From: Escherichia phage vB_EcoD_Teewinot
Length of the DNA stretch: 41,800 nt
Sequence record: NC_073053.1
Reading direction: 5' to 3' (one strand)
Below, piece after piece: positions 1 through 41,800 of the stretch. Numbering within the stretch: the first letter of the stretch is position 1; every line of letters starts with the position of its first letter. The position numbers and the translations under genes are program-made. Below the pieces are notes generated by a model, which saw only the letters and a program-made list of their open reading frames with translations, made no database searches and had not been told where the DNA came from.

Positions 1-31
1 CGGCAGCCAGTAATCCTCCCAGCCTGCCGAT

Positions 32-60
32 TTGGTGGGCTTTTTTGTGCCTGTTATAAT
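32..60 (+). promoter_or_regulatory. sigma70-like promoter upstream of the small terminase gene
   Basis: TTGGTG (32-37), 17-bp spacer, TATAAT (55-60), with TG at 52-53 (extended -10). The track ORF start at 32 is therefore probably an artefactual N-terminal extension. Confidence 0.4.
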
Positions 61-2078: not shown

Positions 2079-3599
2079 ATGACCGTTAACGTTGACAACC
2101 AGCACCCGCTCTATGCGCGCATCGCGCCAGAGTGGAAAATGATCCGTGACTGCGTAGCAGGGGAGCGCGCCGTGAAGGCGTGCGGCCCATTGTACCTGCC
2201 TCATCCCGCCAGTGGCGACAATACTGACCCGAAAGCACGGGCGCGGTATAAGGCGTACAAGCAACGCGCTGTATTCCTGAACGCCACCGCCCGCACACTT
2301 AACGCGCTGTTAGGCGTTGCCTTTGCTAAACCGGTAAGTCTGGACCTTTCCGGGGCGATGGCTGACCTGATTGACGACGTAGACGGCAGCGGTATGCCTC
2401 TGCCGCAACTCCTGCGCGGTGCTATGGCGGAAGTGCTGCAATCAGGACGTGCGGGCTTTATGGTGGACTACGACCGCCAGGCTAACTTTGATGAGCTGGG
2501 TAACGTAGTTCCGCAGACAGCCGCCGAGATGGCGTCACACCGCCCGCTTATACGCCTGTACACGGCAGAACAGATCATCAACTGGCGGCAGACCCACGGC
2601 GTCGATACGCTAATTGTGCTGAAGGAAACGGACGAAATCAGCACCGAAGACCCGGACGACTTCGCAAACCACGAAGTAACAATCTGGACCGAGCTTCGCA
2701 TGATTAATGGTGCGGCACACGCCCGCCGCTGGTACTACAACGCGGACACGTCCGAGGTGCAAATGGATTTGCCGCGTGGATTCACCCGCACCGACCTGGT
2801 GCCGCTGGTGGATGCCTCCGGTAATGCGCTTACACAACTTCCGTTTTGCTGGTGTGGTGCGGTGGACAACAACGCAACGCCTGACGCCGCTCCGCTGGCG
2901 GATATCGCGTCCATCAACATTAAGCACTACAACGCCGAAGCGGACGTCGCCGAGATTGCGCACATCGTGGGCCAACCTACCCTCGTTGCGACGGGCTTGA
3001 CCCAATCATGGGCTGACAAGAACCTGAAGGGCGGCATTGCCCTCGGTGCGACTAAGGGCGTTATCCTGGGCCAGAACATGGACGCTAAACTGATTCAGGC
3101 CGAGGAGCGCAACTTGTCTGTTGCGCTGTGTGAGCGTCGCGAATTGCAAATGGCTAAACTTGGCGCGGCCCTTGTCGAGAAGGGGACCGCACCTAAGACG
3201 GCAACCGAGGCGGCCTACGATGCGCAGACTGATAACAGTATCCTGTCGCTTATCGCCGGTAACGTTGAGACGGCTTTCAACCGTGCGCTGCAAATCGTCC
3301 AGCTATTCACGGGCGACACCGCCGACCAGCGTGTGACGCTGAATAAGTTCTACACCGAAATCACGGTTGATGCTCAGCTTATGACCGCGATGATGTCGGG
3401 GGTGCAGACTGGTACGGTCCGCCTGGCTGACTTCATCAAGTGGATGATGGCGCAGGGCGTCATAGACGACTCGCAAACCGTCGAGCAGGTGGAAGACGAA
3501 TTGCGAAATCAGAATCCATTGCCTCAAATGTCCCCTGATGCGGTAGAATCTACCGAAGAAGACCCGGACAAGGTAGCGGACAATGGCGAAGACAGTTAA
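2079..3599 (+). CDS. portal protein
   Basis: 506 aa ORF immediately after terL with acidic C-terminal tail; conserved gene order terminase-portal-head morphogenesis. Confidence 0.7.
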   Translation: MTVNVDNQHPLYARIAPEWKMIRDCVAGERAVKACGPLYLPHPASGDNTDPKARARYKAYKQRAVFLNATARTLNALLGVAFAKPVSLDLSGAMADLIDDVDGSGMPLPQLLRGAMAEVLQSGRAGFMVDYDRQANFDELGNVVPQTAAEMASHRPLIRLYTAEQIINWRQTHGVDTLIVLKETDEISTEDPDDFANHEVTIWTELRMINGAAHARRWYYNADTSEVQMDLPRGFTRTDLVPLVDASGNALTQLPFCWCGAVDNNATPDAAPLADIASINIKHYNAEADVAEIAHIVGQPTLVATGLTQSWADKNLKGGIALGATKGVILGQNMDAKLIQAEERNLSVALCERRELQMAKLGAALVEKGTAPKTATEAAYDAQTDNSILSLIAGNVETAFNRALQIVQLFTGDTADQRVTLNKFYTEITVDAQLMTAMMSGVQTGTVRLADFIKWMMAQGVIDDSQTVEQVEDELRNQNPLPQMSPDAVESTEEDPDKVADNGEDS

Positions 3600-4686
3600 T
3601 CAATATTTGGCGGATCGAATGATTCGCCGTCACATCTTCACCCAGCGCCTGAGCAATGATCAGGCGCGGAGGGTGCTGGCTATGTGGGAGAAGTTCCGGC
3701 CCACTTTACTTGGTAAGCTGACCGAGTTACTTGATGGCAAAAAGTCCATGAGCAACAAGGCACTTACCACACTGTTAACGCAACTCGACAAGACCGTCAA
3801 AACGGAACTGCGCGCCGAGTTTAAAGTGCTGGCGGAGAGCCTTCAGGAGTTCGCCGACACCGAGGCTGATTATCTCGCGGACACACTAACGGCAGCGATC
3901 CAGCCCGCTGTCGCCGTACCCGCTGTTGAAGTAGTTGGCGTTGTTACCGGCGCGCAGATTGCAGCGACGGCAATGAAAAACCCGTTCCAGGGTAATACTA
4001 TGATGCAATGGCCTGATTCCCTTTCCGAGTGGACCAGGACGCAGATCGGTAATCAGGTGCGCGCTGGCTTCATCCAGGGCAAGCCAACGATGGAAATTAT
4101 CGCGGACGTGAGGCGCGCGCTAGGCGGTCGTAGTGCGCAAGCCATCTCAAGCGTTGTTAAGTCCGCAGTAAACCACTATGCGGCGACTGCCCGCGAACTA
4201 ATGGTAAAAGCAAATGACGATATTCTCGAAGGTCGCCAATGGTTATCTACATTGGACACACATACTTCTCCCATGTGCCAGCTACGCGATCGCCTGTTTT
4301 ATCCGGTTGATGTTACTCCCGACACCAAAGGAAAGCGCGGCGGGAAAGTGGTGGCGGGGTCACAGTATGGCGCTGGCCCAGGCAAGCTGCATTATTGCTG
4401 CCGGTCAACGGAGACGTGGAAAGTCAAAGGCATGGAAGATTGGCCCAGTGGTAAGCGTCCGGCCCTGAAGGCTGACGCGGGTCGGTTGCTGAGTGAGCAG
4501 GTCGACGCGCAGACTGATTTCTTCTCCTGGGTGCAGCGCCAGCCGCGCCACATCCTGGAGGAATTATATGGGGTGCAGCGCGCGGACCAGATTATGCGCG
4601 GCGTGAAAGTGCCGAAGATGTTCACTGATACCGGCGAACTAATGACTGTTGCACAGCTTAAAAACCGGGGGTTATGGCGTGATTAA
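3583..4686 (+). CDS. head morphogenesis / minor head protein
   Basis: 367 aa ORF overlapping the portal stop; position typical of SPP1 gp7/Mu F-like head morphogenesis proteins. Confidence 0.55.
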   Translation: MAKTVNQYLADRMIRRHIFTQRLSNDQARRVLAMWEKFRPTLLGKLTELLDGKKSMSNKALTTLLTQLDKTVKTELRAEFKVLAESLQEFADTEADYLADTLTAAIQPAVAVPAVEVVGVVTGAQIAATAMKNPFQGNTMMQWPDSLSEWTRTQIGNQVRAGFIQGKPTMEIIADVRRALGGRSAQAISSVVKSAVNHYAATARELMVKANDDILEGRQWLSTLDTHTSPMCQLRDRLFYPVDVTPDTKGKRGGKVVAGSQYGAGPGKLHYCCRSTETWKVKGMEDWPSGKRPALKADAGRLLSEQVDAQTDFFSWVQRQPRHILEELYGVQRADQIMRGVKVPKMFTDTGELMTVAQLKNRGLWRD

Positions 4687-5008
4687 ATATGCAGCGATCG
4701 GGGTGGTTATCGGCCTGGCGGTTGGCTTCTGGCTGGGTGATTCCTACCGCGCTGGCGTTGTGGCGAGCGCGGCGCAAGAAGCGCAAGCGAAAGCCCGACG
4801 GCAGCAAACTAAGGTTGTCGAGGGGGCAGTGCAGGCAGAACAGGCCCGCGACGTAGAATACCGGACTATCACGAAAGAGGTTGTAAAATATGTTACGCGT
4901 CCTAACCGTCCTGATTGTAGTTTTGATGCTGAGCGCGTGCGGATCAAGCAACGTGCCGTTGATGCCGCTAACGGAGTCGGCACTGCGACCGCCGTGCAAG
5001 TTCGATAA
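4679..5008 (+). CDS. i-spanin (Rz-like), putative
   Basis: N-terminal TM helix (IKYAAIGVVIGLAVGFWLG) followed by A/Q/E/K/R-rich helical region. GTG 4679 preceded by GGGGGT; the track gives a TTG start at 4649. A lipoprotein ORF is embedded in the +1 frame over its 3' end. Confidence 0.5.
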   Translation: MIKYAAIGVVIGLAVGFWLGDSYRAGVVASAAQEAQAKARRQQTKVVEGAVQAEQARDVEYRTITKEVVKYVTRPNRPDCSFDAERVRIKQRAVDAANGVGTATAVQVR

Positions 5009-5120
5009 CCCGTCCGCGGACCCCGACGAAGATTTGATGATTGACGTGAAAAATATGGAATGCGGCGCGAAGCTAAGGGCGCAAGTGCTGGAGTTGCAGA
5101 AAATAATTCGGGGGCCGTGA
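4890..5120 (+). CDS. o-spanin (Rz1-like outer-membrane lipoprotein), putative
   Basis: Signal peptide with lipobox (VLMLSAC-GSS), proline-containing mature part with a Cys; embedded out of frame in the 3' end of the preceding TM protein gene; stop codon sits in the loop of a terminator. Confidence 0.55.
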   Translation: MLRVLTVLIVVLMLSACGSSNVPLMPLTESALRPPCKFDNPSADPDEDLMIDVKNMECGAKLRAQVLELQKIIRGP

Positions 5121-5134
5121 TGGCCCCTTTTGTT
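5111..5134 (+). terminator. rho-independent terminator
   Basis: GGGGCC-gtgat-GGCCCC followed by TTTTGTT. Confidence 0.6.
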
Positions 5135-5250
5135 AGCGTGGAATACCGCAGATTTCGAGAGTCCATCATGATTGATTTGGCTTCGGTCGCTATTTCGTGG
5201 TCGCGCAGGATGTTAGCCAGAATCTGGTTTTTAATGTCTTTCGTCAGTCT

Positions 5251-5311
5251 CATTAGTGTGTCCTCGTTGTTGGTGTGCAACCAATATATGCAACCAATAC
5301 GAGGATTGCAA
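5251..5311 (-). promoter_or_regulatory. leftward promoter-RBS-ATG cassette (duplicate of the cassette at 38308-38369)
   Basis: On the minus strand: -35 TTGCAA (5311-5306), 17-bp spacer, -10 TATATT (5288-5283), two ATTGGTTGCA copies, GAGGA RBS (5265-5261), ATG (5253-5251). The 28-nt stretch TATATTGGTTGCACACCAACAA(C)GAGGAC is shared with the promoter of the gene at 38367. Confidence 0.45.
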
Positions 5312-5318
5312 GCGAATT

Positions 5319-5346
5319 TTGCGATTATTTTTATCGCTGATAATAT
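5319..5346 (+). promoter_or_regulatory. sigma70-like promoter for the scaffold/capsid genes
   Basis: TTGCGA (5319-5324), 16-bp spacer, TAATAT (5341-5346). Confidence 0.3.
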
Positions 5347-5401
5347 TAGAAGCGTGAAGTCGAGCGGGTGGCCTGCTCTGCCACAATCCCAGGGGGATAG
5401 C

Positions 5402-6106
5402 ATGAAACTTACTAAAGCAGAATATGACGCGTTGCCGGAAGGTATGAAGGCGCTTTTTGTTGCCGATGGCGACGGGTATAAATCAACTTTCATGACCGCA
5501 GAAGAAGTACAGGCGGAAATCAAGGGTCTGAAAGAAAACAACGCGAAGCTGGTGAGCGAGAAGAAAGCAGAAGCCGAACGCCGCGCCGAAGCTGAGCGCC
5601 TTGCGAAAGAGAAAGAGGAAGCCGCCGCGCGCAAAAATGGCGACCTCGAAGCGATCGATAAGTCCTGGAAGGATAAGTTTGCGAAACACGAAGCAGATAC
5701 ATCGGGAAAAATCGAAGCCTACCGCAAGCAGATCCACGACCTAACCATCGGCAGCGCTGCCAAAGACCTGGCATCGAAGCTATTCGGTAAGAATGCGGGC
5801 ATCATGCAACGCCACGTAATGGACCGCCTGACGCTGGAAGACGGCGAAGATGGCAGCTTGAAAGTGCGTGTCTTGCAGGATGGCAAACCGTCCGCGCTGA
5901 CTATGGAAGAGCTTGAAAAAGAGTTCCGTAATAACGCCGATTTTGCATCCGTCCTGGCTGGCACGCCAGCCGGTGGCGCGCCTAGCAAACCGACGCAGGT
6001 TGTCGAAGATGTGAAGTCGAAAATCACTATGGGCCACAGCTTCGGTATCACTGACCTTACGAAACAGGCAGGTGAAATCATCGCTAAGATGGGCGACGAC
6101 GAGTAA
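5402..6106 (+). CDS. scaffolding protein (putative)
   Basis: ATG 5402 preceded by AGGGGGA; 234 aa, charged and helical (KEKEEAAARK-type coiled coil), immediately upstream of the major capsid gene. The track ORF start at 5060 is an upstream extension through the intergenic region. Confidence 0.6.
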   Translation: MKLTKAEYDALPEGMKALFVADGDGYKSTFMTAEEVQAEIKGLKENNAKLVSEKKAEAERRAEAERLAKEKEEAAARKNGDLEAIDKSWKDKFAKHEADTSGKIEAYRKQIHDLTIGSAAKDLASKLFGKNAGIMQRHVMDRLTLEDGEDGSLKVRVLQDGKPSALTMEELEKEFRNNADFASVLAGTPAGGAPSKPTQVVEDVKSKITMGHSFGITDLTKQAGEIIAKMGDDE

Positions 6107-6110
6107 GCAG

Positions 6111-6136
6111 ATTGCCCGCGAAAGCGGGCAATTTTG
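6111..6136 (+). terminator. terminator/attenuator between scaffold and capsid genes
   Basis: ATTGCCCGC-gaaa-GCGGGCAAT followed by TTTT. Confidence 0.45.
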
Positions 6137-6203
6137 CGAGCGCGTAAATCTAAGGTAACATTAACGTCACTGGGCGAATGCTCACAACTCAAAGGATTTC
6201 GAT

Positions 6204-7304
6204 ATGACTTTAACAGTGTTCCAGCGTAAACTCGTTACCGCGGTTACGCAAATGATCCCCGACAACCTGAACGTTTTCAACGCCGCCGCCAATGGCGCTG
6301 TTGTTCTCGGTACTGGTGAAGTGCTGAAGGATGTTATTGAGAAAATGTCCGTAGGCTTGATCGCCAACCTCGTTACCGACCGTAACGCCTACGCCCCTGT
6401 CGGTACTCCGGCAACCGCTAAAGTGCTGGCGCGTATGCTGACCAACTCCGTTAACCTATCCGCGAAAGTGGGTCCGGTAGCGATCACTAAGGCTATGATG
6501 GCTAAGATCGAAACCAACGTTAACAGCGTTGCGGCTGAGATTGCGGCGCAGGCCACTCAAGCGATTATGCTGCACTACCTGAAAGCGGGTATCGGTGCGG
6601 GTAAAGCGGCGATCGAAAGCAACGAAGCGGCAAAATACACCCAACCGGCGCGCGTTGACGGCGTTGGCGGTCGTACCTTCCCGACCCTGGCAGACTTCCC
6701 GCTGGCGGCTTCTAAGTTCGGCGATCAGGCGTCTTTGATTAAGTCCTGGTTTATGGACGGCGTTACCTGGGCAAACTTCATCGCGTACCAGGCACTCCCT
6801 TCCGCTGAACAGGTATTCGCAATTGGCGATCTCCAGGTAATGGGTGATGGCCTGGGCCGTCGTTTCATTATCTCCGATGCCGCTGCCGATGCTATGGGCA
6901 CGGGTAACATGCTGGGTCTGGTCCCTGGCGCGGTTGCCGTTACCACCAACGGCCTCGATATGCTGGCGCAGGAGAAAGGCGGTAACGAGAACATCGAACG
7001 CTGGTGGCAGGGTGAGTTCGACTTCAACGTGGCTGTTAAAGGCTACCGTCTGAAGGCGTCCGCTCGTACCCCGATCGAAGGTGTGCGCTCGTTCAAACTG
7101 GACGATATTACCACTTCCGCTAACTGGGAATTGGATCAGGGCCAGGTAGACAACGCACCGGCAACCGTTCAGGATGTTGGCGCGGTGGGTGATGTCGATA
7201 CTAAAGGTCGTCGTAAGACCCAGGCCGCACAGGCAGTGCCTACCCGTCACATCAAGGAAACCGCTGGCGTACTGGTTACGCTGACGGCGACCACAGCGTC
7301 TTAA
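6204..7304 (+). CDS. major capsid protein
   Basis: 366 aa ORF after the scaffold gene with AAGGA RBS, followed by a strong terminator; position and size typical of an HK97-fold capsid protein. Confidence 0.8.
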   Translation: MTLTVFQRKLVTAVTQMIPDNLNVFNAAANGAVVLGTGEVLKDVIEKMSVGLIANLVTDRNAYAPVGTPATAKVLARMLTNSVNLSAKVGPVAITKAMMAKIETNVNSVAAEIAAQATQAIMLHYLKAGIGAGKAAIESNEAAKYTQPARVDGVGGRTFPTLADFPLAASKFGDQASLIKSWFMDGVTWANFIAYQALPSAEQVFAIGDLQVMGDGLGRRFIISDAAADAMGTGNMLGLVPGAVAVTTNGLDMLAQEKGGNENIERWWQGEFDFNVAVKGYRLKASARTPIEGVRSFKLDDITTSANWELDQGQVDNAPATVQDVGAVGDVDTKGRRKTQAAQAVPTRHIKETAGVLVTLTATTAS

Positions 7305-11376: not shown

Positions 11377-14019
11377 ATGGCAGGTCAGGCAGCAGGCATC
11401 ACGCTAAAGGCTGATGTTGCACAAATCAGAACGGCAAATACTGTGCTGGACTCCTTCGCACAGAAATCCGAGAACACAGAAAACAAGGTTAAGAAATTAA
11501 ACGACACCCTCGGCAAATCCAAAAAGGTGACGAGTGACGCCGCGGGCGGAATGGAAAAGCTGGCAAACGAATCGCAGCGCGCCGCCGATGGCATGACGAA
11601 ACAGGAGCGACTCGCCAACAGGTTAGGCATGTCGACTAAAAACTTGGGCTTTGCCTCGCGTAACGCCGCATTCCAGTTACAGGATATCGCAGTTACGCTT
11701 GAGATGGGGATGCCGGTACACCGCGTTATGCTTCAGCAGTTACCGCAGCTAACTGGGGCGTTCGGTGGATTGGGTAACACTCTGCGTTATGTTGCTGGCT
11801 TCCTCGGTCCAGTTGGGATCGGCCTTGCTGCGGTAACGGCAACGTTAGGCGTGGGCGTAGCAATTACGTCCCGCGCAGAGAACCAGGTCGCAGCGCTTAA
11901 CAAGACGCTGGCGCTGTCAGGTAACATTTCCGGCCTAACGGCAAACCAGATCCTGGTGCTATCCGAGAACGCCGAGCGCATGGGCGGGTCGTTCCGCAAG
12001 ACGCGTGACACAATCCAGGCGCTGGCGGCGGCGGGTGTGAAAGCGGGGGCGGACTTCGGCCCGCTGGCGAAGGTTGTGAATGACTTCGCGAAGGCGTCTA
12101 ATCAGCCGATCCCTGACGTGGTTGAATCCATCTCAAAATTGTCGAACGACCCAGTGGGCGGACTGCGTGCGCTGGCGGATAAGTATCATGTCGTTACCGA
12201 GGCGCAGATCCAGCAGGTGCAATCGCTTGTAGATATGGGGCGTGAAACGGACGCGGTTGCTCTGGCTAACAAAACAGCCGCTGCGTCGTTCTCCAGCATG
12301 ACCGATGAGGTAAAGTCCAACATGGGTACGCTTGAGCGGTCGATGAACGTAGTTACATCGGCAGCTAAATCTATGTGGGATGCCATCCTGGATGTGGGCC
12401 GCGCGCAGTCCTCGAATGAGTCCGAGATGAAAGCGCGTGAGTCCTTGCAGCGCATGACCACGGCGTACTATGCCGAGATGAGGGCGGTAAACGCTGCCGG
12501 TGGGGTAATGACCGAAGCGCAGAAAGCGCGTATTAACATGCTTTACAGCGAACTGGTCGCCCAGGAAAAGGTAGTAGCGTCGCTCACCCTTCGCAACCGT
12601 GCCGAGCGAGACAGCGCCAGCGCCGCGGATGAAGCAGCAAAGGCGAACGAGGAGGCAAACCGCGCCGCCCGCGACCGCTCCGCGTTTGAGAAGGAGTACG
12701 CAACCAACGCGAAGCGGCGAGCCGACGAGATCGCCCGCCTAAATTTGCTGAATAAGCGCGGTGTTATTAACGAGAAAGAACTAGCCGAGGCGGTGAAGCA
12801 GGTCAACGAGCGTTACAAAGACCCCGCGCCGAAGAAAGCGGAGGCAGTTCGAGTCGATGCCGGGCTGAAAATGCTGGAAGTCGCGCGAAGCGAATTAGCC
12901 CAGCTTCGTGAGTCTGGAAAGCAGATCGAAGCCAACGCATCGACGCAGACCCGCACGCAACGCGCGCAAGCGTCCCTGAACAAGCTGATTGCCGATAATG
13001 AGCAGTTAATCACCGCGAGCAAGGAGCGCGCACTCACGGCAGCAGAAAAGCAGCAAACGGCGGCGTTCGAGGCGGTTAAATCGGTACGCGAGCAGATCGT
13101 CGAAGAAGCCAAATTGCTGGACGCGAAAGAGAAGCAGATCAAAGCACACGCCCAGGTCGATGCATTCATCAAGAACCAGAACGCCGAGCTAAAAGCCACC
13201 GCGGCGGGATATGCGCTTTCCACTCGCGAAGCGGCTAACCTGCGCGAAGAATTGCAGCTAATTGATCGCCTGAAGCGGGTGGGCGCTAACGATACCGATA
13301 TTGATCTGGCGGTGTCTAAGCTGCGCGAAGTGCAGGAAGCACAGACCGGTGCTAACGCCTCGCTATGGGATGGCTTCAGCCGCGGGCTTAAGGATAGTGT
13401 TGATGAAATGGGTAACGGCTATACGCAGATGACGTCACTCACAAAATTCACGTTCGGCGCTATGCAGGACACGATGAACGAGTTTTTCGAGACTGGCAAG
13501 CTGAACGCAAAAGATATGGTTAAGTCCATTCTGAGCGAATTAATAAAGCTGGCTACCTCGCAGGCGTTCAAGTCCATCGTTAGCGCTTTCGGCGGTGACG
13601 GCGGCAAAAACGGATTGTTCGGCGCTATTTTCTCCGGCCTCACTAAGAATGCGGACGGCGGAGCGTACGCAGGGGGCAACCTCGCGGCCTATTCGGGGCA
13701 AGTGGTAAGCCAGCCCACCTTTTTCAGTTATGGCGTCCAGGCGTTCGCTAAGGGCGCAGGATTGATGGGGGAGGCTGGCCCCGAGGCCATCATGCCGCTT
13801 AAGCGCGGGCCAGACGGTAAACTTGGCGTTGCCGCGGCAGGCGGTGTCGGGGGAATGATTGTAACGACCAACGTTAACATGGGGACCGGTAAGACGGATA
13901 CCAGTGTTAGCGGTCCAGACCCGCGCACCGCGCAGGCGTTCGGAAAGCAAATCACCGAGTCGGTCAAGGCCGAGATCGTGAAGGCGACGAAACCGGGTGG
14001 TGTACTTTACAAACGATGA
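11377..14019 (+). CDS. tail tape measure protein
   Basis: 880 aa, long helical A/Q/K/E-rich protein with glycine-rich C-terminal part, AAGGGGA RBS; located after the G/GT chaperone and before the tail tip genes. Confidence 0.85.
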   Translation: MAGQAAGITLKADVAQIRTANTVLDSFAQKSENTENKVKKLNDTLGKSKKVTSDAAGGMEKLANESQRAADGMTKQERLANRLGMSTKNLGFASRNAAFQLQDIAVTLEMGMPVHRVMLQQLPQLTGAFGGLGNTLRYVAGFLGPVGIGLAAVTATLGVGVAITSRAENQVAALNKTLALSGNISGLTANQILVLSENAERMGGSFRKTRDTIQALAAAGVKAGADFGPLAKVVNDFAKASNQPIPDVVESISKLSNDPVGGLRALADKYHVVTEAQIQQVQSLVDMGRETDAVALANKTAAASFSSMTDEVKSNMGTLERSMNVVTSAAKSMWDAILDVGRAQSSNESEMKARESLQRMTTAYYAEMRAVNAAGGVMTEAQKARINMLYSELVAQEKVVASLTLRNRAERDSASAADEAAKANEEANRAARDRSAFEKEYATNAKRRADEIARLNLLNKRGVINEKELAEAVKQVNERYKDPAPKKAEAVRVDAGLKMLEVARSELAQLRESGKQIEANASTQTRTQRAQASLNKLIADNEQLITASKERALTAAEKQQTAAFEAVKSVREQIVEEAKLLDAKEKQIKAHAQVDAFIKNQNAELKATAAGYALSTREAANLREELQLIDRLKRVGANDTDIDLAVSKLREVQEAQTGANASLWDGFSRGLKDSVDEMGNGYTQMTSLTKFTFGAMQDTMNEFFETGKLNAKDMVKSILSELIKLATSQAFKSIVSAFGGDGGKNGLFGAIFSGLTKNADGGAYAGGNLAAYSGQVVSQPTFFSYGVQAFAKGAGLMGEAGPEAIMPLKRGPDGKLGVAAAGGVGGMIVTTNVNMGTGKTDTSVSGPDPRTAQAFGKQITESVKAEIVKATKPGGVLYKR

Positions 14020-20242: not shown

Positions 20243-20545
20243 ATGGCATTCGGTATCGCAACGTGGGACGAGCAAGGACGCCCAAACAACTACGGCATTA
20301 AACCGGTAAGCGTGATCGGAAGGATTCATCTTGCGGAAGGACAAAAATCAGGCGCATGGTCATTCCCTGTACCGGCGGGGATGAAGGTCGGATACGTGGT
20401 CGCACTGGATAACGGCGCGGTCGGGCCAGGCCGCAGAATAACCGCCAGCGGGAACACTATCACGGTTTCCGCGGCAAGTGCGGTAGGTGGCGGGGTTTAC
20501 TCCGCATCTGAATGTGACGTTATTGTTTTTGTGGAGCGAGCATAA
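20243..20545 (+). CDS. hypothetical tail-associated protein
   Basis: 100 aa ORF with GAGG RBS after the J-gene terminator. Confidence 0.45.
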   Translation: MAFGIATWDEQGRPNNYGIKPVSVIGRIHLAEGQKSGAWSFPVPAGMKVGYVVALDNGAVGPGRRITASGNTITVSAASAVGGGVYSASECDVIVFVERA

Positions 20546-21219
20546 TGGCTAATTACGGCGCGTTGATTGACTTACCAAACGGCAACCCGTTTATCACACC
20601 AGAATCGACGCCGTTTTGTCTATTCCGCCGTGTGGTTGTTGGGTCTTCGGCTAACGGCACTATGCAGTCGGCGGCTGCCGATATTAATTTGGGTGGTGAC
20701 TACCCTGCAATAGCGTTTGTGAAAACTACGCACACCGCCCAGCCGACCGTCGTAGGGTCTTCTCGCGTTGGTAATGTGGTGAAGGTGAGCGCCAGCAATC
20801 CATTCGGGCAAGGCTTCACGATGACGGCTTACATCTTTGCCATATTCCCACAGACCCTTCCGCGGTGGGGCTTCGCTATTTGGGATAAGACGGGGAAGCT
20901 AGTGCTTACTAATGAGAGTCGCGTACTAAGCGATTTAGTTACCGTCGGATCGCCAGGCGCTAACGGGGGGATTAACATTGACCAGACGCTAAATGGCAGC
21001 TACGCCGTCGCTCCGGGCATATTGGGGTCTACGCTGATCCGGTTTTTTGTGCAGGGCCAGCCGCAAGTAATATCGATAACGGCGTACACGGGGGCCAGAT
21101 TTGATGGGTCGCGAACGCGTATATCGGCAGCGTCGGCGGGGAGAGCCACGGGGGGTGTGGTGGGGTATACTAACAACGGCAACGCGATTATGGCGATTAA
21201 CACGGCCAATTATGATTGA
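20545..21219 (+). CDS. hypothetical tail fibre accessory protein
   Basis: 224 aa ORF, start overlaps the previous stop (TAATG), glycine-rich; followed by a bidirectional terminator. Confidence 0.5.
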   Translation: MANYGALIDLPNGNPFITPESTPFCLFRRVVVGSSANGTMQSAAADINLGGDYPAIAFVKTTHTAQPTVVGSSRVGNVVKVSASNPFGQGFTMTAYIFAIFPQTLPRWGFAIWDKTGKLVLTNESRVLSDLVTVGSPGANGGINIDQTLNGSYAVAPGILGSTLIRFFVQGQPQVISITAYTGARFDGSRTRISAASAGRATGGVVGYTNNGNAIMAINTANYD

Positions 21220-21221
21220 AG

Positions 21222-21245
21222 AAAATCCCCTTTCGGGGATTATTC
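21222..21245. terminator. bidirectional terminator between convergent genes
   Basis: ATCCCC-tttc-GGGGAT flanked by an A-run on one side and T-rich sequence on the other; sits between the + gene ending 21219 and the - gene ending 21240. Confidence 0.55.
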
Positions 21246-21458
21246 GCAGGTGGTGTTTTTGAAATGGTCTACCGACACGTACTGGAAGCTAAACGGATAA
21301 CCCGCCCTTAGCATTTTATGCCCGGAGAAGTCCGCAACACCATACACAGGGACCACATAATCCATGCCGCTATTCTGGTATGTGGCGTCGCAGACTTTAG
21401 CGGGCATGTCGGCACAACCTGACAAAAGAACCGCACAAATCATAATTAAAGTTTTCAT
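21240..21458 (-). CDS. small lipoprotein (candidate Cor-like superinfection exclusion protein)
   Basis: 72 aa, signal peptide with lipobox (AVLLSG-C), GAGGA RBS, own promoter; only minus-strand gene inside the tail gene block. Confidence 0.55.
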   Translation of the reverse strand: MKTLIMICAVLLSGCADMPAKVCDATYQNSGMDYVVPVYGVADFSGHKMLRAGYPFSFQYVSVDHFKNTTCE

Positions 21459-21491: not shown

Positions 21492-21519
21492 GTATTACAC
21501 CGCTCAACCAGGATTGCAA
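21492..21519 (-). promoter_or_regulatory. sigma70-like promoter for the lipoprotein gene
   Basis: On the minus strand: ATTGGTTGCAA supplies -35 TTGCAA (21519-21514), 16-bp spacer, -10 TAATAC (21497-21492). Confidence 0.4.
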
Positions 21520-21540
21520 CCAATTTATGGGGATTTAGCT

Positions 21541-22281
21541 ATGGCAGCGGGTACGCTATCCGTAACGAACAATAGCACGGCGGTAGTAGGAGTCGGCACA
21601 ACGTTTACCGCGTTTAAAGCTGGCGACTTCTTAACGCTGGTGGTAGGACAAGTGCCTTACACAGTGGCGATCGCATCAATCGAAAGTAACACGGCGCTTA
21701 CGCTGGTGTTGCCGTTCGACGGCCCAACGGCAACCGGCCTTGCTTGGGATGGTGTTAAGCGCGATACCATGTCGCTGGCAACGATGGGCGTTACCGTACA
21801 GGCACAGAAAGCGTTGCGATTGATGATTGCAGATGAAAACAACTGGCGTGCGATCTTCGGCGACGCTGAAGAAATTACCGTGACGTTACCTAACGGGCAA
21901 GTCATGCAGGGTATGTCATGGGGCTATCTGTCGAAATTGCTTAAGAACGTAGATCTGGTTGAGATGCGCGACCTCGCAGCGCAAGCCGAAGCATCAAAAT
22001 TGGCAGCGCAGGGATTCCGCGATCAGGCTGAGGAGTGGGCCCGCCAGCGCTTCGGTATTATCGCCGAGGAAGCGGAGCTAATTGCGCCGCAGTACGTTAA
22101 ACACCACGAGTTCCCGATCGAGGATATTCTCGACGAAGACGGCAACAAGATCGGGGAGAAGATGACGGACCGCCCATCCATCGACGTTAACCCGATCGTA
22201 ATGGACTTGATGGGATGTGTTCAATATCTCAATAAGCAGGTGGAGGAGTTGAAGGCCGAGATCGCGGCGTTGAAGAAATAA
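21541..22281 (+). CDS. tail fibre-like protein with C-terminal coiled coil
   Basis: ATG 21541 (the track start at 21514 is a TTG inside the promoter motif); N-terminus MAAGTLSVTNNSTAVVGVGTTF... is paralogous to the ORF at 14055; C-terminus ends in a heptad-like EELKAEIAALKK. Confidence 0.5.
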   Translation: MAAGTLSVTNNSTAVVGVGTTFTAFKAGDFLTLVVGQVPYTVAIASIESNTALTLVLPFDGPTATGLAWDGVKRDTMSLATMGVTVQAQKALRLMIADENNWRAIFGDAEEITVTLPNGQVMQGMSWGYLSKLLKNVDLVEMRDLAAQAEASKLAAQGFRDQAEEWARQRFGIIAEEAELIAPQYVKHHEFPIEDILDEDGNKIGEKMTDRPSIDVNPIVMDLMGCVQYLNKQVEELKAEIAALKK

Positions 22282-38366: not shown

Positions 38367-38708
38367 ATGAAATTTCCAGTAACTATCACCGGCAACGACC
38401 ACGGCACTTACGAGAGTACCAAAATGAAAGCATTAATCTGGAATTACACAATGGCGATGGCAAAGCTGAACGAAGCGAAAGCGCTGAACGGCAACATCGA
38501 CCGCGCGGCACATATCGTAATACTGGCACAGCAGGCAATCATGTGCGCGCTCGACGGCATGGATGAACTGGCGAAGGCAATTCACGAATACGCGCAGGCA
38601 TTCTCCCGTGAGCGCCTGGCATATCGCTTCGGGATCGGCGAGACGGCAGTGACAAACGTCGCCCGGATTAAAGCCCAGCGCGAACTATTCGCCCAGCTTG
38701 CGAAATAA
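38367..38708 (+). CDS. hypothetical protein
   Basis: 113 aa from ATG 38367 (GAGGA RBS); the track start at 38304 lies inside the promoter. Confidence 0.55.
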   Translation: MKFPVTITGNDHGTYESTKMKALIWNYTMAMAKLNEAKALNGNIDRAAHIVILAQQAIMCALDGMDELAKAIHEYAQAFSRERLAYRFGIGETAVTNVARIKAQRELFAQLAK

Positions 38709-38717
38709 GGGGTCAAA

Positions 38718-38987
38718 ATGGGCCGTAGGCGAGCAAAACAGCTTTCGTGGCATATTCCCCTGCATTGCATACGAATATGGGCTCAGAATGCGACTGAGGG
38801 CGATTCTGTGTCCTGGAGCTATCGCGATGATGTGAAGCCGCTGACGCAGACTCGCTACTTGCACCAGTTCGCAGCGCAACACGATTTCAGGGTGCGGACT
38901 TCCTTGCGACCAATGGGAATACGTATTACATTACGCAAGAAGCCCGCCATTGAGCGGGTGGGCAAACACTGGAGACTGAGCAAATGA
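38718..38987 (+). CDS. hypothetical protein
   Basis: 89 aa, basic, AAGGGG RBS. Confidence 0.5.
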   Translation: MGRRRAKQLSWHIPLHCIRIWAQNATEGDSVSWSYRDDVKPLTQTRYLHQFAAQHDFRVRTSLRPMGIRITLRKKPAIERVGKHWRLSK

Positions 38988-39076
38988 CACCAATGCAAAG
39001 AGCGCTAATGGCGGGATTCTCGCAGAAGTTTATTTCGGTAGGCGACTATAAGACTGTTGAGGAGACTGAGCAATGA
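38984..39076 (+). CDS. small hypothetical protein (absent from the ORF track)
   Basis: 30 aa (MTPMQRALMAGFSQKFISVGDYKTVEETEQ); start overlaps the previous stop and its stop overlaps the next start, both in GGAGACTGAGCAA(A)TGA contexts. Confidence 0.3.
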   Translation: MTPMQRALMAGFSQKFISVGDYKTVEETEQ

Positions 39077-39318
39077 GATTACTATTCCGCCGCATACTGA
39101 CCTGGATTCCTAAGTCCGCTTGCACCACGCGGCAAGCGATCGGGTATTCCGCGCATCGAAGGGCACATTGCCGCAGTTCTTCGAAGTCCTCACACACGAT
39201 ATTGAGCGCGGCGATGTGTTGCGTGATATTCGCGACGGGCAGCTATGGATCGTGGAGCACCCCACCAGGTTGCGCATGTGGTGGCTATGGTATCGGCAAG
39301 TGGTCCATTTTCGATTAA
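39073..39318 (+). CDS. hypothetical protein (frame uncertain)
   Basis: 81 aa ORF with coupled ATG and GGAGA RBS. Composition is odd (Cys/Ser/Arg-rich); the overlapping frame at 39120-39332 reads more protein-like but has no ATG/GTG start and no RBS. Confidence 0.3.
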   Translation: MRLLFRRILTWIPKSACTTRQAIGYSAHRRAHCRSSSKSSHTILSAAMCCVIFATGSYGSWSTPPGCACGGYGIGKWSIFD

Positions 39319-39336
39319 ATACGCAAGCGTGATATA

Positions 39337-39371
39337 GTCCCAGTGAGCTAAAACTTACTGGGACTTTTTTA
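39337..39371 (+). terminator. terminator abutting the holin start codon
   Basis: AGTCCCAGT-12 nt loop-ACTGGGACT followed by TTTTTT, then ATG 39371 immediately. Confidence 0.55.
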
Positions 39372-39661
39372 TGGATAAGCTAAACGAGTGGTTATTCGCC
39401 CTTGCGTGTCTTGCTGGTGGCTTCGTGGGCGCACGCATTCACGGCGAGGCAACGAAAGGGCCGTTGAACTTCGTTTTATATGTCGTAGTTGGCTTCCTGT
39501 GCGCCATATTTGGTGCGCCAGCCATTGCCGAGTGGTCTGGTTTGTCTGGCGAGCGCACTGTCGCCGGTTTGGGCTTCGTAACTGCAATCTTCTGGATGCC
39601 AATAGCCGCCCGGATCAGGGAGACTATTGAGTCGTTCCGACTTCCGGGGGGCGCAAAATGA
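39371..39661 (+). CDS. holin (putative, three TM helices)
   Basis: 96 aa with three hydrophobic helices (WLFALACLAGGFVGA; LNFVLYVVVGFLCAIFGAPAI; VAGLGFVTAIFWMPIAA) and a charged C-terminus; two genes upstream of the endolysin. Confidence 0.55.
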   Translation: MDKLNEWLFALACLAGGFVGARIHGEATKGPLNFVLYVVVGFLCAIFGAPAIAEWSGLSGERTVAGLGFVTAIFWMPIAARIRETIESFRLPGGAK

Positions 39662-39903
39662 TTATCTCCGTCCTGTTGTTTGTTATCATAGGGGCTTCGT
39701 CCCTGTTTAACGTGTATGCGCCGTCCGTCCAGGATGGCATTTTAGGCCGGGTGTTATATCTGCTAACGGCGATGATCTGCGTTATCGGATTGTTGCAAAC
39801 AGGAGACGTATCTGACACCACCTGGACCGCGTTAATCTGGTTGTTTGCATTGCGCACGCTGCGTAATGCTGTTTTGAATGGGGTAAAACATGCGATTCAG
39901 TGA
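39658..39903 (+). CDS. second holin-like membrane protein (holin/antiholin partner?)
   Basis: 81 aa with two to three TM helices, GGGGGG RBS, overlapping start/stop codons with its neighbours. Confidence 0.5.
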   Translation: MIISVLLFVIIGASSLFNVYAPSVQDGILGRVLYLLTAMICVIGLLQTGDVSDTTWTALIWLFALRTLRNAVLNGVKHAIQ

Positions 39904-40381
39904 CAACGGTCTACGATTTACGGCAGCATGGGAGACTTTCAGCCCAGTGCCGTATTTCGCGACTAAGAAAGAGCAGGCCCGCGGCCTGTACACCTGGGGT
40001 TATGGTCATACCGGCACTAACCCGCCTCGAAGCATTACCCGCGCGGAAGCGCTGGAGCTACTCAAGCGCGATGTGGCGTATGCTGAGGACCGGGTGAACA
40101 AATACGCACATCCGAGCATTAACCAGGCGCAATTCGACGCGCTGGTGGACCTGGTGATCAATGCTGGTCCCGGTCCGATCGTACCGGACGACGTAGCCGG
40201 TGACTTCGATGATGCGGTGCGACTGGGTGACTGGGCGAAGGTCCGTGCTACTCTGCCGCAGTTCCGCAAGCAAGGTGGGGAGGTGCTTAAGGGTCTGGTC
40301 CGTCGAGCAATCGGCAGGCAAGCGCTATTCGATGGAAAGCAGTGGGACGTTGCCGAGAAAATCGGTCGTAACGCAGCATAA
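39890..40381 (+). CDS. endolysin, GH24 lysozyme type
   Basis: 163 aa; recalled P22-type lysozyme landmarks match: SDNGL near the N-terminus, catalytic E (WETF), YTWGYGHTG, INQAQFDALVDLVINAG, C-terminal RRAIGRQALF. Confidence 0.8.
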   Translation: MRFSDNGLRFTAAWETFSPVPYFATKKEQARGLYTWGYGHTGTNPPRSITRAEALELLKRDVAYAEDRVNKYAHPSINQAQFDALVDLVINAGPGPIVPDDVAGDFDDAVRLGDWAKVRATLPQFRKQGGEVLKGLVRRAIGRQALFDGKQWDVAEKIGRNAA

Positions 40382-40397
40382 TACGAGGTAACACAGT

Positions 40398-40565
40398 ATG
40401 CTAAAAAGTATTCTTGATCATAACGCCGACGCGCTCGCCGCGCTGGCTAAAACCGAAGACCCAGGCGCACGCGCCATTATCGCGGACACAATCAGTCATG
40501 CGGGTGTCTTTGATGCGAAGCTGCCGAGTCCGCCACCGCAGGAGGAATCTGGTCCTGCAGCGTAA
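40398..40565 (+). CDS. small hypothetical protein in the lysis cassette (absent from the ORF track)
   Basis: 55 aa (MLKSILDHNADALAALAKTEDPGARAIIADTISHAGVFDAKLPSPPPQEESGPAA) with GAGGTAA RBS, followed by a clean terminator. Confidence 0.45.
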   Translation: MLKSILDHNADALAALAKTEDPGARAIIADTISHAGVFDAKLPSPPPQEESGPAA

Positions 40566-40572
40566 ACAATCA

Positions 40573-40597
40573 AGCCCGGAATTATCCGGGCTTTTTA
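40573..40597 (+). terminator. rho-independent terminator
   Basis: AGCCCGGA-atta-TCCGGGCT followed by TTTTT. Confidence 0.65.
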
Positions 40598-40657
40598 TTG
40601 CTTGACTCGGGACCGTGGTATATTGTCCTCTGACCAATAACCAGGAAGTTAATTAAT

Positions 40658-41800
40658 ATGCACCCGCAAACTAAAATCACCGACGAGCAATTGATCGCCG
40701 AGTTGCAATCCGGCACTACCTCGAAAGATATTGCGAAGAAATACGGCCTTTCCCTCCGAAATGTCTACATGCGAAAAGCCCGCCTGTCGAAGAAAGGGAT
40801 TGGACACGGCAATGATGCCGTAATCCGTAAGCGCGTTGCCGATGGATTTGGCGTTAAGCGTGTATCCGCCCTGGTGCGCGGCAATGGCGAAGAGGTCATG
40901 TCGTGGGTTATCACTGAGCAGGACAAGGAGCGCCAGCTTGAGGCGATGCGCGCAGTGCTGGATGGCATGAACAGCGAAATCACACCGGCAGCACCAGTTA
41001 GCGCCCCGCCAGTACCGATCCAGGCGCTCGACTTGCTCAACCTGTACACCGTGTCAGACTTCCACCTGGGCATGTTGGCATGGGGCGAGGAGACTGGCGA
41101 AGACTGGGATATGGCGATCGCCGAAGACCTGTTCTACCGCTGGTTTGTCGAAGCCTTCGCACGCGCCCCGGACGCAGGCACTGCCGTAATTAATATCCTC
41201 GGTGATATGGCCCACTTTGATAGCCTCGATGCTGTCACTCCGGCAAGTGGTCACATACTGGACGCCGACACCCGCTACCAGAAACTGGTCCGATACATGA
41301 TTCGCATGGTGCGCAACGTCGTCGAACTGGCGCTGCAAAAACACCACAAAGTCAAACTGCTAATCGTCCAGGGAAATCATGACGAGTCGGGTATGATTTG
41401 GCTGGCTGAGATGTTCAATACTCTGTACGAGAACGAGCCGCGCGTCGATGTGGATACGTCCCCGGACGTCTACAAAATGGTGCAGCACGGTAAGACCACG
41501 CTATTCTTCCACCACGGGCACAAAGCGCGATTCGATGCTATCGAGCAGGTTATGATTTCTAAATTCAGACAGGCTTTCGGATCCAGTGAGTACAGCTACG
41601 CGCACGTAGGCCACTTGCACCACCAGAAGATTGTAGAATCCCGCAACATGATTGTTGAACAGCACCGGACGCTCGCAGCGAAAGACGCCTACGCCAGTCG
41701 TGGCGGTTGGATGTCCGGTCGCAGCGCAAACGTCATTACCTACAGCGCCAACTACGGCGAAGTAGCGCGCTTAACCATTAGCCCGGAAATGTTGAAGTAA
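40658..41800 (+). CDS. SbcD/Mre11-like metallophosphoesterase nuclease with N-terminal HTH
   Basis: 380 aa; N-terminal HTH-like TTSKDIAKKYGLSLRNVYMRKARL; phosphoesterase motifs VSDFHLG, ILGDMAHFD, VQGNHDE, HHGH, GHLHH. Complete ORF ending at the window edge. Confidence 0.6.
   Translation: MHPQTKITDEQLIAELQSGTTSKDIAKKYGLSLRNVYMRKARLSKKGIGHGNDAVIRKRVADGFGVKRVSALVRGNGEEVMSWVITEQDKERQLEAMRAVLDGMNSEITPAAPVSAPPVPIQALDLLNLYTVSDFHLGMLAWGEETGEDWDMAIAEDLFYRWFVEAFARAPDAGTAVINILGDMAHFDSLDAVTPASGHILDADTRYQKLVRYMIRMVRNVVELALQKHHKVKLLIVQGNHDESGMIWLAEMFNTLYENEPRVDVDTSPDVYKMVQHGKTTLFFHHGHKARFDAIEQVMISKFRQAFGSSEYSYAHVGHLHHQKIVESRNMIVEQHRTLAAKDAYASRGGWMSGRSANVITYSANYGEVARLTISPEMLK

Follow-up and report, generated by a model that had tools for sequence, protein, structure and literature searches.

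Between the head-morphogenesis and scaffold genes of Escherichia phage vB_EcoD_Teewinot lie two overlapping open reading frames (ORFs; 4679–5120), one for a protein with a transmembrane (TM) segment and one for a small lipoprotein. We asked whether this pair encodes the two-component spanin of the phage and, if so, how its location among head genes, away from the holins and the endolysin, is to be understood. The DNA analyzed (NC_073053.1, 41,800 nucleotides; hereafter the window) is nearly the entire genome of a Dhillonvirus, an HK578/SO-1-like E. coli siphophage, with 95–97% identity to published phages. The reference set for the comparison is the ‘Jersey’ i- and o-spanin families of the overlapped class, which comprise the spanins of HK578, JL1, EK99P-1, EP23, SSL-2009a, SO-1, Jersey, SETP3 and K1G (Kongari et al. 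2018, BMC Bioinformatics 19:326; PMC6139136).

Genomic setting of the gene pair

The locus contains the following features:

3583–4686, + strand: head-morphogenesis gene (SPP1 gp7/Mu F-like), upstream neighbor; phrog_241 at E = 9.4e-117
4667–4686, + strand: junction of the head-morphogenesis and predicted i-spanin genes, 8 nt overlap
4679–5008, + strand: predicted i-spanin gene, 109 aa, GTG start; phrog_2536 ‘Rz-like spanin’ at E = 1.6e-36
4890–5120, + strand: predicted o-spanin gene, 76-aa precursor, ATG start; phrog_5672 at E = 1.1e-26 and phrog_1267 at E = 5.3e-12, both ‘Rz-like spanin’
4890–5008, + strand: dual-coding stretch of 119 nt; last 39 i-spanin codons, and o-spanin signal peptide and mature N-terminus in frame +1
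5110–5133, terminator-like on both strands: G+C-rich hairpin GGGGGCC-GTGAT-GGCCCC, then TTTT
5151–5253, − strand: remnant of an Nmad5-domain gene, first 35 codons
5402–6106, + strand: head scaffolding protein gene, downstream neighbor; phrog_206 at E = 6.2e-49, start confirmed

The o-spanin stop codon sits in the loop of the 5110–5133 hairpin, which is kept in GeorgBuechner, and the consensus hairpin scan found no other + strand terminator-like site between 42 and 5109. The hairpin is the end of a block that runs from terS to the o-spanin gene, operon structure being read here from consensus hairpin and promoter scans only. Next to this block, the Nmad5-domain gene has lost ~646 bp compared with all relatives, and a promoter-like site is found near its remnant (5311–5283, − strand). 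In a search for another phage carrying the deletion junction, none of 127 relatives shared it; the deletion leaves the neighboring spanin genes untouched. Long spurious ORFs are common in the window, examples at this locus being the antisense frames 4658–4999 (−) and 4744–5634 (−).

The i-spanin gene

The GTG start codon (4679) is preceded by a Shine-Dalgarno sequence, GGGGG (4667–4671), identical to that listed for HK578 and JL1 (Kongari et al., Table S1). Both elements fall within the final part of the preceding head-morphogenesis gene (TAA stop codon at 4684–4686), and the short overlap makes translational coupling of the two genes likely.

As judged by simple hydropathy and regular-expression rules, which were used in place of dedicated predictors for both i-spanin topology and o-spanin lipidation, the encoded protein is predicted to be of type II, anchored in the inner membrane, with a periplasmic domain that is mostly helical. 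Its single N-terminal TM segment, AAIGVVIGLAVGFWL (residues 5–19, nt 4691–4735; mean Kyte-Doolittle value 2.35), is preceded by Lys3 and followed by 85 hydrophilic residues. The resulting periplasmic domain (~85 aa) contains one cysteine, Cys80, which together with a VKY motif is invariant in the alignment as far as Jersey, K1G and pIS4-A. A single-sequence AlphaFold2 model, of low confidence (pLDDT 56.7) and used for helix positions only, places helices at residues 3–72 and 84–97. The extreme C-terminus is variable, and GeorgBuechner-type relatives stop seven codons earlier. An earlier reading of the window (the first-pass annotation) had described a TM-plus-coiled-coil protein, of which the TM part stands; the coiled coil is weakly supported, since Pepcoil reports none in the i-spanins of HK578, JL1 and EK99P-1 and one in that of SSL-2009a (Kongari et al., Table S3; PMC6139136).

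The o-spanin gene

The second frame, with a Shine-Dalgarno sequence AAAGAGG at 4874–4880, encodes a predicted small Pro-rich lipoprotein. The signal peptide MLRVLTVLIVVLMLSA is followed by Cys17 in the lipobox context MLRVLTVLIVVLM-LSAC-G, and the codon of this cysteine, the predicted site of lipidation, lies at 4938–4940. The +2 residue is Gly here and, among the relatives, always G, N, Q or S, never the retention signal Asp, and the Lol pathway should therefore route the lipoprotein to the outer membrane. The mature protein of 60 residues contains seven Pro and two more cysteines, C36 and C58; these two, C17 and a D-x-D-x-D-L motif show no variation among Dhillonvirus, Jersey and K1G, and two constant o-spanin cysteines were also noted by Kongari et al. 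(PMC6139136). A scan of all six frames of the window for lipoprotein signals returned three candidates, against 0.17 per shuffled sequence. Apart from the o-spanin, these are an implausible antisense ORF, which is probably spurious, and Cor:

21240–21458, − strand: Cor; phrog_1119 at E = 3.1e-26

Cor is the sole other credible lipoprotein, and the window contains no other spanin candidate.

Overlap architecture and coding evidence

The i-spanin stop codon is at 5006–5008 and the o-spanin stop codon at 5118–5120, 112 nt beyond it, which places the two adjoining genes in the overlapped class. The first-pass annotation had given the same coordinates, which we reproduce exactly, and had likewise assigned the lipoprotein ORF to the +1 frame; its description of the pair as embedded does not hold, as the o-spanin gene runs past the end of the i-spanin gene. 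It had also named loss of the lipoprotein ORF from relatives as an observation that would count against a spanin pair, and the ORF is instead conserved: both frames are open in 18 of 18 distinct Dhillonvirus sequences examined and also in L018, Jersey and K1G, and both are kept in relatives down to 36–49% protein identity. Variation in the singly coding parts falls mostly at the third codon position (45 of 70 and 22 of 37 sites), and in the dual-coding stretch, where 40 of 119 sites are variable, no codon position of either frame is spared. Variability in the overlap is barely reduced relative to the flanks (0.336 vs 0.37–0.38) and adds no support for dual coding; the near-normal value is in keeping with what this stretch encodes, a signal peptide that tolerates change and an i-spanin C-terminus that varies.

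Assignment to the ‘Jersey’ spanin family

Both proteins are near-identical to the HK578, JL1 and EK99P-1 ‘Jersey’ family entries, from which the present pair differs by few substitutions, and lengths (109 and 76 aa) and starts are identical, as are the GTG/Shine-Dalgarno start context and the overlapped +1 arrangement. With 42–50% identity to Jersey and K1G in tblastn searches, the pair is a direct member of the family and belongs to its shorter ‘second subfamily’ (EP23 to SO-1), which is characterized by two helices, a linker with one beta element and variation at the extreme C-terminus (PMC6139136). The invariant cysteines of both proteins persist across ~35–50% identity, and Cys80 of the i-spanin and Cys36 and Cys58 of the o-spanin would be available in the periplasm for homotypic disulfides. 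The combined periplasmic length, 85 + 59 = 144 residues, is enough to span the periplasm, and lengths of 62–300 have been recorded over 528 spanin systems. Neither protein had a Pfam match above threshold, and two DUF matches (E 0.015–0.06) were treated as noise. Our literature search turned up no Jersey-family spanin that had been tested experimentally. Based on family homology and these hallmark signals, we propose that the gene pair very probably encodes a two-component spanin of the ‘Jersey’ family and of overlapped architecture.

Comparison with other spanin systems

The Guernseyvirinae (Jersey, K1G, phiEap-2, Tsm2, TS33 and Schulenberg) carry homologous, overlapped spanins of 36–50% identity in the same slot immediately 5' of the scaffold gene, unlinked from holin and endolysin. 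Their i-spanins are longer (~128 aa) and contain polyQ stretches, and a Hoc-like decoration gene and small ORFs intervene between the head-morphogenesis and spanin genes, so that the 8-nt overlap is absent. In Aeromonas phage pIS4-A (Roufvirus), the i-spanin is homologous at 37% identity and keeps both the invariant Cys and the VKY motif; its gene is overlapped by a lipoprotein ORF. These genes, too, are located downstream of the portal and head-morphogenesis genes, but they directly follow endolysin and holin in a canonical cassette. The o-spanin of pIS4-A (L021, 5092–5337) is unannotated and has no similarity to the present o-spanin that is detectable by tblastn.

Like lambda Rz/Rz1, the present pair combines a predicted type II inner-membrane protein with a predicted outer-membrane lipoprotein encoded in the +1 frame, has periplasmic cysteines for disulfide-linked dimers, and would be expressed late (PMC6139136). 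Lambda differs in that Rz1 lies wholly inside Rz (embedded), in its S-R-Rz/Rz1 cassette and in the two clear coiled coils of Rz, and the sequence similarity of the present pair is limited to PHROG-level families other than those of lambda. In T4, the architecture of the PseT.3/PseT.2 spanin genes is separated, and their sequence family is unrelated. The Drexlerviridae are the sister group of Dhillonvirus, and in one of them, the related small siphophage T1, the same last step of lysis is carried out by the unimolecular spanin gp11; no such gene follows the Dhillonvirus endolysin.

Position relative to the lysis cassette

The remaining lysis genes form a separate cassette (39371–40381), flanked by terminator-like hairpins at 39336–39365 and 40572–40593:

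39371–39661, + strand: holin; phrog_2359 at E = 9.4e-32
39658–39903, + strand: second holin or antiholin; phrog_2508 at E = 1.1e-26
39890–40381, + strand: endolysin; phrog_7 at E = 8.1e-35

The holin, endolysin and spanin genes are thus not contiguous. Beside the endolysin, the ORF at 40398–40565 was considered as a unimolecular spanin or second lipoprotein and rejected; it encodes a Big_2-domain protein truncated to its first 46 residues and has no lipobox.

Dhillonvirus assemblies circularize, their packaging is of the headful type according to PhageTerm predictions, and terS is the conventional point at which records are opened (PMC9022532; PMC13348001), so that a gap of 34 kb between spanins and cassette is an artefact of linearization. 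The figure, given by the first-pass annotation, is correct in window coordinates (5120 to 39371) and misleading as a true distance: counted over the ends of the window, the interval between the endolysin stop (40381) and the i-spanin start is ~6.1 kb long and contains six genes, all on the + strand. The same annotation had proposed an i-spanin/o-spanin pair apart from the holin-endolysin cassette, with which the PHROG and Kongari entries, the TM helix and the lipobox agree, and had regarded the split as unusual; however, in all of Dhillonvirus and Guernseyvirinae the same homologous pair immediately precedes the scaffold gene. Both the pair and its odd site near the head genes are already catalogued for Dhillonvirus and relatives. 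GenBank annotates the pair, for example as bas16_0005/0006 of GeorgBuechner, and spanins separate from holin and endolysin are in print for phage Schulenberg (PMC6763661).

Alternative interpretations

The TM gene is flanked by head-morphogenesis and scaffold genes and overlaps the former, a location that could reflect a role of its product as a head-module or virion-associated protein, such as a membrane-anchored assembly factor. The 102-aa homologue in EE09 (CDS34) was among the proteins identified by proteomics of a ‘cell-free lysate’, and the authors of that work guessed from its position that it was structural. We consider this role very improbable. The EE09 detection consists of one peptide, and the sample, filtered lysate pelleted at 82,000 g, also contained endolysin, terminase, scaffold, phosphoesterase and replication protein, and given the non-structural proteins in this pellet, membrane debris would explain the presence of an i-spanin. 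The peptide suggests that the i-spanin ORF is translated; coming from a crude pellet, it is not evidence that the TM protein is a virion component, the observation that the first-pass annotation had set against a spanin. The TM protein is, moreover, always paired with a +1-frame lipoprotein bearing a conserved Cys, and in pIS4-A its homologue comes last in an endolysin-holin cassette.

It is also hard to believe that the lipoprotein acts in superinfection exclusion or receptor masking, as Cor or Llp do, and overlaps the TM gene incidentally. Small phage outer-membrane lipoproteins of this kind exist, and the window itself encodes Cor, but Cor is already present at the receptor-binding locus of the phage, the lipoprotein matches spanin PHROGs and not the Cor or Llp families, and, as is usual for two-component spanins, it has an obligate TM partner and a conserved pattern of Cys. 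The probability that either ORF, or both, stayed open by chance in DNA that is rich in G+C is negligible. Long spurious ORFs are indeed frequent in the window (the antisense frame 4744–5634 is one), but E-values of 1e-26 to 1e-36 against curated families, frames conserved to 36–49% protein identity, the third-position bias and a lipoprotein-signal expectation of 0.17 per shuffled window all speak against chance, and the conservation data already refute it.

Proposed mechanism and expression

By analogy with lambda Rz/Rz1, the two spanin subunits would join via their C-terminal regions into disulfide-linked, periplasm-spanning complexes that would have no effect as long as peptidoglycan cages them. 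After triggering of the holins (39371–39903) and removal of the wall by the endolysin, the spanins would fuse or disrupt the outer membrane, completing lysis. From the gene layout, the spanin genes would be the last two of a terS-terL-portal-head-morphogenesis block, with the i-spanin probably coupled in translation to the head-morphogenesis gene, such that the spanins would be made late, together with the head proteins. Spanins that are harmless until the wall is gone do not need to be co-regulated with holin and endolysin, and the stability of the unlinked site across Dhillonvirus and Guernseyvirinae would follow from this.

We think it very improbable that the fixed position, instead of being an accident of history, reflects a functional link with the assembly of heads. 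Such a link could consist of spanin dosage or timing set by head-gene translation, or of i-spanin bound to assembling particles, at which the single EE09 lysate peptide might hint. As to history, the pIS4-A arrangement, with a full lysis cassette after the head-morphogenesis gene, could be ancestral, and later relocation of holin and endolysin could have orphaned the spanins.

Implications

The finding matters little beyond correct annotation, for which it has two consequences: (i) distances on linearized maps of circularly permuted phage genomes can mislead, and (ii) an overlapped o-spanin is often missed by automated annotation. The records of EE09, UDS3lw and pIS4-A have no o-spanin CDS, and many close relatives call both genes ‘hypothetical’. 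The spanin family is large, with homologues of the two proteins in 649 and 658 phage records, that is, in ~650 sequenced phages. With this pair very probably its two-component spanin, the phage would have a complete lysis system, together with two holins and an endolysin.

Identity and architecture of the spanin pair

The spanin pair consists of two plus-strand reading frames placed, as the first-pass annotation had described, between the head-morphogenesis gene (3583-4686) and the scaffold gene (5402-6106).

4679-5008, plus strand: i-spanin, GTG start, 109 aa
4890-5120, plus strand: o-spanin, ATG start after AAAGAGG, 76 aa

The i-spanin GTG (4679) is preceded by a GGGGG Shine-Dalgarno sequence and seven bases. 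A strongly hydrophobic segment spans residues 5-19 (AAIGVVIGLAVGFWL); the 85 residues that follow or remain outside it are hydrophilic and include a single cysteine. The o-spanin, which does lie in the +1 frame of this TM protein (ATG 4890), begins with MLRVLTVLIVVLM-LSAC-G, a lipoprotein signal with an LSAC lipobox in which the lipidated Cys is followed by Gly, not Asp; the mature protein has 60 residues, including seven prolines and two further cysteines. A six-frame scan of the window returned three candidate lipoprotein signals, compared with 0.17 per shuffled sequence, the other two being an implausible antisense ORF and Cor, the only other credible lipoprotein. Cor (21240-21458, minus strand; 72 aa, lipobox LSGC) is assigned by its match to the Cor superinfection-exclusion family (phrog_1119, 3.1e-26); its neighbours encode a “membrane associated protein” (20545-21219) and a tail fibre (21514-22281).

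A Pfam scan gave no model for either spanin. Their identity is supported by “Rz-like spanin” PHROG profiles (i-spanin: phrog_2536, 1.6e-36; o-spanin: phrog_5672, 1.1e-26, and phrog_1267, 5.3e-12) and by near-identical published entries. Among the 528 two-component spanins curated by Kongari et al. 2018 (PMC6139136), those of HK578, JL1, EK99P-1, EP23, SSL-2009a and SO-1, all Dhillonvirus, are assigned to the “Jersey” i-/o-spanin families of the overlapped class; the i-spanins in Table S1 are 109 aa long, share the GGGGG-N7-start context and are nearly identical to the one in the window, and the tabulated o-spanins likewise have 76 aa. For the Dhillonvirus subfamily the same paper describes two helices and, between them, a linker containing one beta element; the extreme C-terminus is unstructured and variable, and two o-spanin cysteines stay constant (PMC6139136).

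The pair had been read as embedded. The two frames share 119 nt and the o-spanin runs 112 nt beyond the i-spanin stop, and the architecture is therefore overlapped. In every respect that can be tested from sequence the pair agrees with a two-component spanin and with the Jersey family, and it has neither an embedded architecture nor a place in a contiguous lysis cassette. Lytic function and complex formation are predicted; a literature search found no experiments on any Jersey-family spanin.

The proposed TM-plus-coiled-coil layout holds for the hydrophobic segment, but the coiled coil is equivocal: the published Pepcoil table lists one in SSL-2009a (residues 29-56) and predicts none for HK578, JL1 and EK99P-1 (PMC6139136), and single-sequence AlphaFold2 places helices at 3-72 and 84-97 with low confidence (pLDDT 56.7). 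Based on these data, a helical i-spanin is supported.

Conservation and the virion-component question

Sixteen IMG/VR loci were fetched with the head-morphogenesis protein as query, so that their choice was independent of the spanins, and annotated records were added. Both frames are open, with the ATG, lipobox and cysteines intact, in 18/18 distinct Dhillonvirus sequences, and also in a locus of 70% identity (L018), Jersey and K1G; the lipoprotein ORF is thus conserved in relatives. In GeorgBuechner-type phages the i-spanin stop is shifted by seven codons, which fits the published variable C-terminus. Third codon positions hold 45 of the 70 variable sites in the i-spanin-only part and 22 of 37 in the o-spanin-only part; within the overlap, variable sites are spread across both frames. 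Alignments down to 34-49% identity retain o-spanin Cys17, Cys36 and Cys58 with a D-x-D-x-D-L motif, and i-spanin Cys80 with V-x-K-Y. Using tblastn, o-spanin homologues were found in 649 phage records and i-spanin homologues in 658, most from Salmonella and Escherichia siphophages.

We also considered whether the TM protein is a virion component. A 102-aa i-spanin homologue of phage EE09 (CDS34) was detected in a lysate pellet proteome with one peptide (12% coverage), and the authors guessed from gene position that it is structural. However, the sample, prepared by filtration and pelleting at 82,000 g only, also held endolysin, terminase, scaffold fragments, phosphoesterase and replication protein, so the detection shows at most that the homologue is made, not that it belongs to the virion.

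Genomic position

By megablast, 157 phage records match 3500-6200, nearly all Escherichia phages of Dhillonvirus, with 95-97% identity to Pubbukkers, slur05, GeorgBuechner and others. The pair is annotated at the same place in GeorgBuechner (bas16_0005 “i-spanin”, bas16_0006 “o-spanin”) and as “Rz-like spanin” in slur05, Zumzum and PS2. The Guernseyvirinae (Jersey, K1G, phiEap-2, Tsm2, TS33) likewise carry the homologous pair directly before the scaffold gene, with head morphogenesis and a Hoc-like gene preceding it. The placement, previously called unusual, is accordingly the regular one in these phages, and the first-pass observations on the pair were already known, having been annotated and published for Dhillonvirus and its sister subfamily.

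Some annotations are incomplete at this locus. The o-spanin CDS is absent from the GenBank annotations of EE09 (OR756193.1), where locus tags pass straight from EE09_34 to EE09_32, and of UDS3lw (PQ658967.1), in which only an “I-spanin” is annotated, beginning 30 nt too early. In EE09 the scaffold gene is annotated as three short CDSs, a break-up suggestive of frameshifts or sequencing errors.

The distance from the lysis genes depends on where the genome is opened.

32-682: terS
682-2067: terL
2079-3599: portal
6204-7304: major capsid
39371-39661, plus strand: first holin
39658-39903, plus strand: second holin
39890-40381, plus strand: endolysin

An exonuclease-like gene runs to the final base of the window, and its GeorgBuechner counterpart stops 130 nt short of the record end. 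This, together with the gene order, indicates that the window is in essence a single unit genome, opened at terS. Cohesive ends, which circularise on infection, were predicted for EE09 (PMC10673088). The proposed separation of about 34 kb is correct in window coordinates (34.25 kb from o-spanin stop to first holin), but across the ends only ~6.1 kb, with six plus-strand genes, lies between the endolysin stop (40381) and the i-spanin start (4679), or ~6.2 kb allowing for some 130 nt that may be missing. Other records are opened at different points, so that their spanins appear at 22, 34 or 40 kb; in P78 these genes are numbered ORF 33 (endolysin) and ORF 40 (spanin). The lysis functions are indeed split, but only modestly.

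The gene after the endolysin (40398-40565, plus strand) encodes a Big_2-domain (Ig-like) protein truncated to 55 aa; the GeorgBuechner protein has 137 aa, and 44 of the first 46 aligned residues agree between the two. In EE09 the homologous protein (CDS40) was found both in lysates and in infected cells.

Predicted transcription layout

An 8-nt overlap between the head-morphogenesis stop and the i-spanin start (GTGATTAA) suggests that the two genes are translationally coupled. Consensus scans, on whose pattern matches all transcription inferences for the pair are based, gave the following strong terminator-like hairpins and none on the plus strand between 42 and 5109.

21-41, plus strand: before terS
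5110-5133 (plus strand 5110-5128), both strands: G+C-rich, conserved, o-spanin stop codon in the loop
39336-39365 and 40572-40593, plus strand: flanking the holin-holin-endolysin cassette

The region 38600-41800 contains 7 terminator-like hairpins (shuffle expectation 2.9 +/- 1.9). From this distribution, the spanins would close a late unit that begins at terS and is separate from the holin-endolysin unit. Since the 5110-5133 hairpin lies midway through the head module, expression of the scaffold and capsid genes downstream would depend on read-through or on a promoter of their own; the plus strand yielded no sigma-70-like promoter.

In all relatives, a 765-nt minus-strand Nmad5-domain gene (Pfam PF18757, 6.3e-56) lies between o-spanin and scaffold, and the hairpin would also terminate this convergent gene. 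At 5134-5311 of the window it has lost about 646 bp, the junction near 5149-5151 lying in an imperfect short repeat (CGCAAATCTCG / GCCAGATTTCG) and being shared by none of 127 related phage records.

5311-5283, minus strand: promoter-like site of the Nmad5 remnant
5253 down to about 5151, minus strand: remnant of 35 N-terminal codons

The deletion shifts the frame, so the ORF that starts in the remnant runs antisense across the spanin genes as far as 4744.

Proposed mode of action

In lambda, the inner- and outer-membrane subunits Rz and Rz1 form disulfide-linked dimers, bind via their periplasmic domains and are kept inactive by the peptidoglycan mesh; after holin and endolysin action they disrupt the outer membrane, probably by membrane fusion (PMC6139136). 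The pair in the window most likely works in the same way. Like the pair in the window, the T4 spanins are unlinked (PMC6139136). Aeromonas phage pIS4-A has its homologous i-spanin at the end of a canonical endolysin-holin-spanin cassette, itself downstream of portal and head morphogenesis. An unannotated 81-aa lipoprotein ORF (5092-5337 of the fetched locus L021; NC_042037.1 about 13264-13509; MSPTRIVMCVFLMTTISGC..., lipobox ISGC) overlaps the end of its annotated “Rz-like spanin”, and is probably the missing o-spanin of that cassette. The family is therefore found both inside and outside lysis cassettes and, as spanins are inert until the wall is degraded, their unlinked late expression would be functionally adequate.
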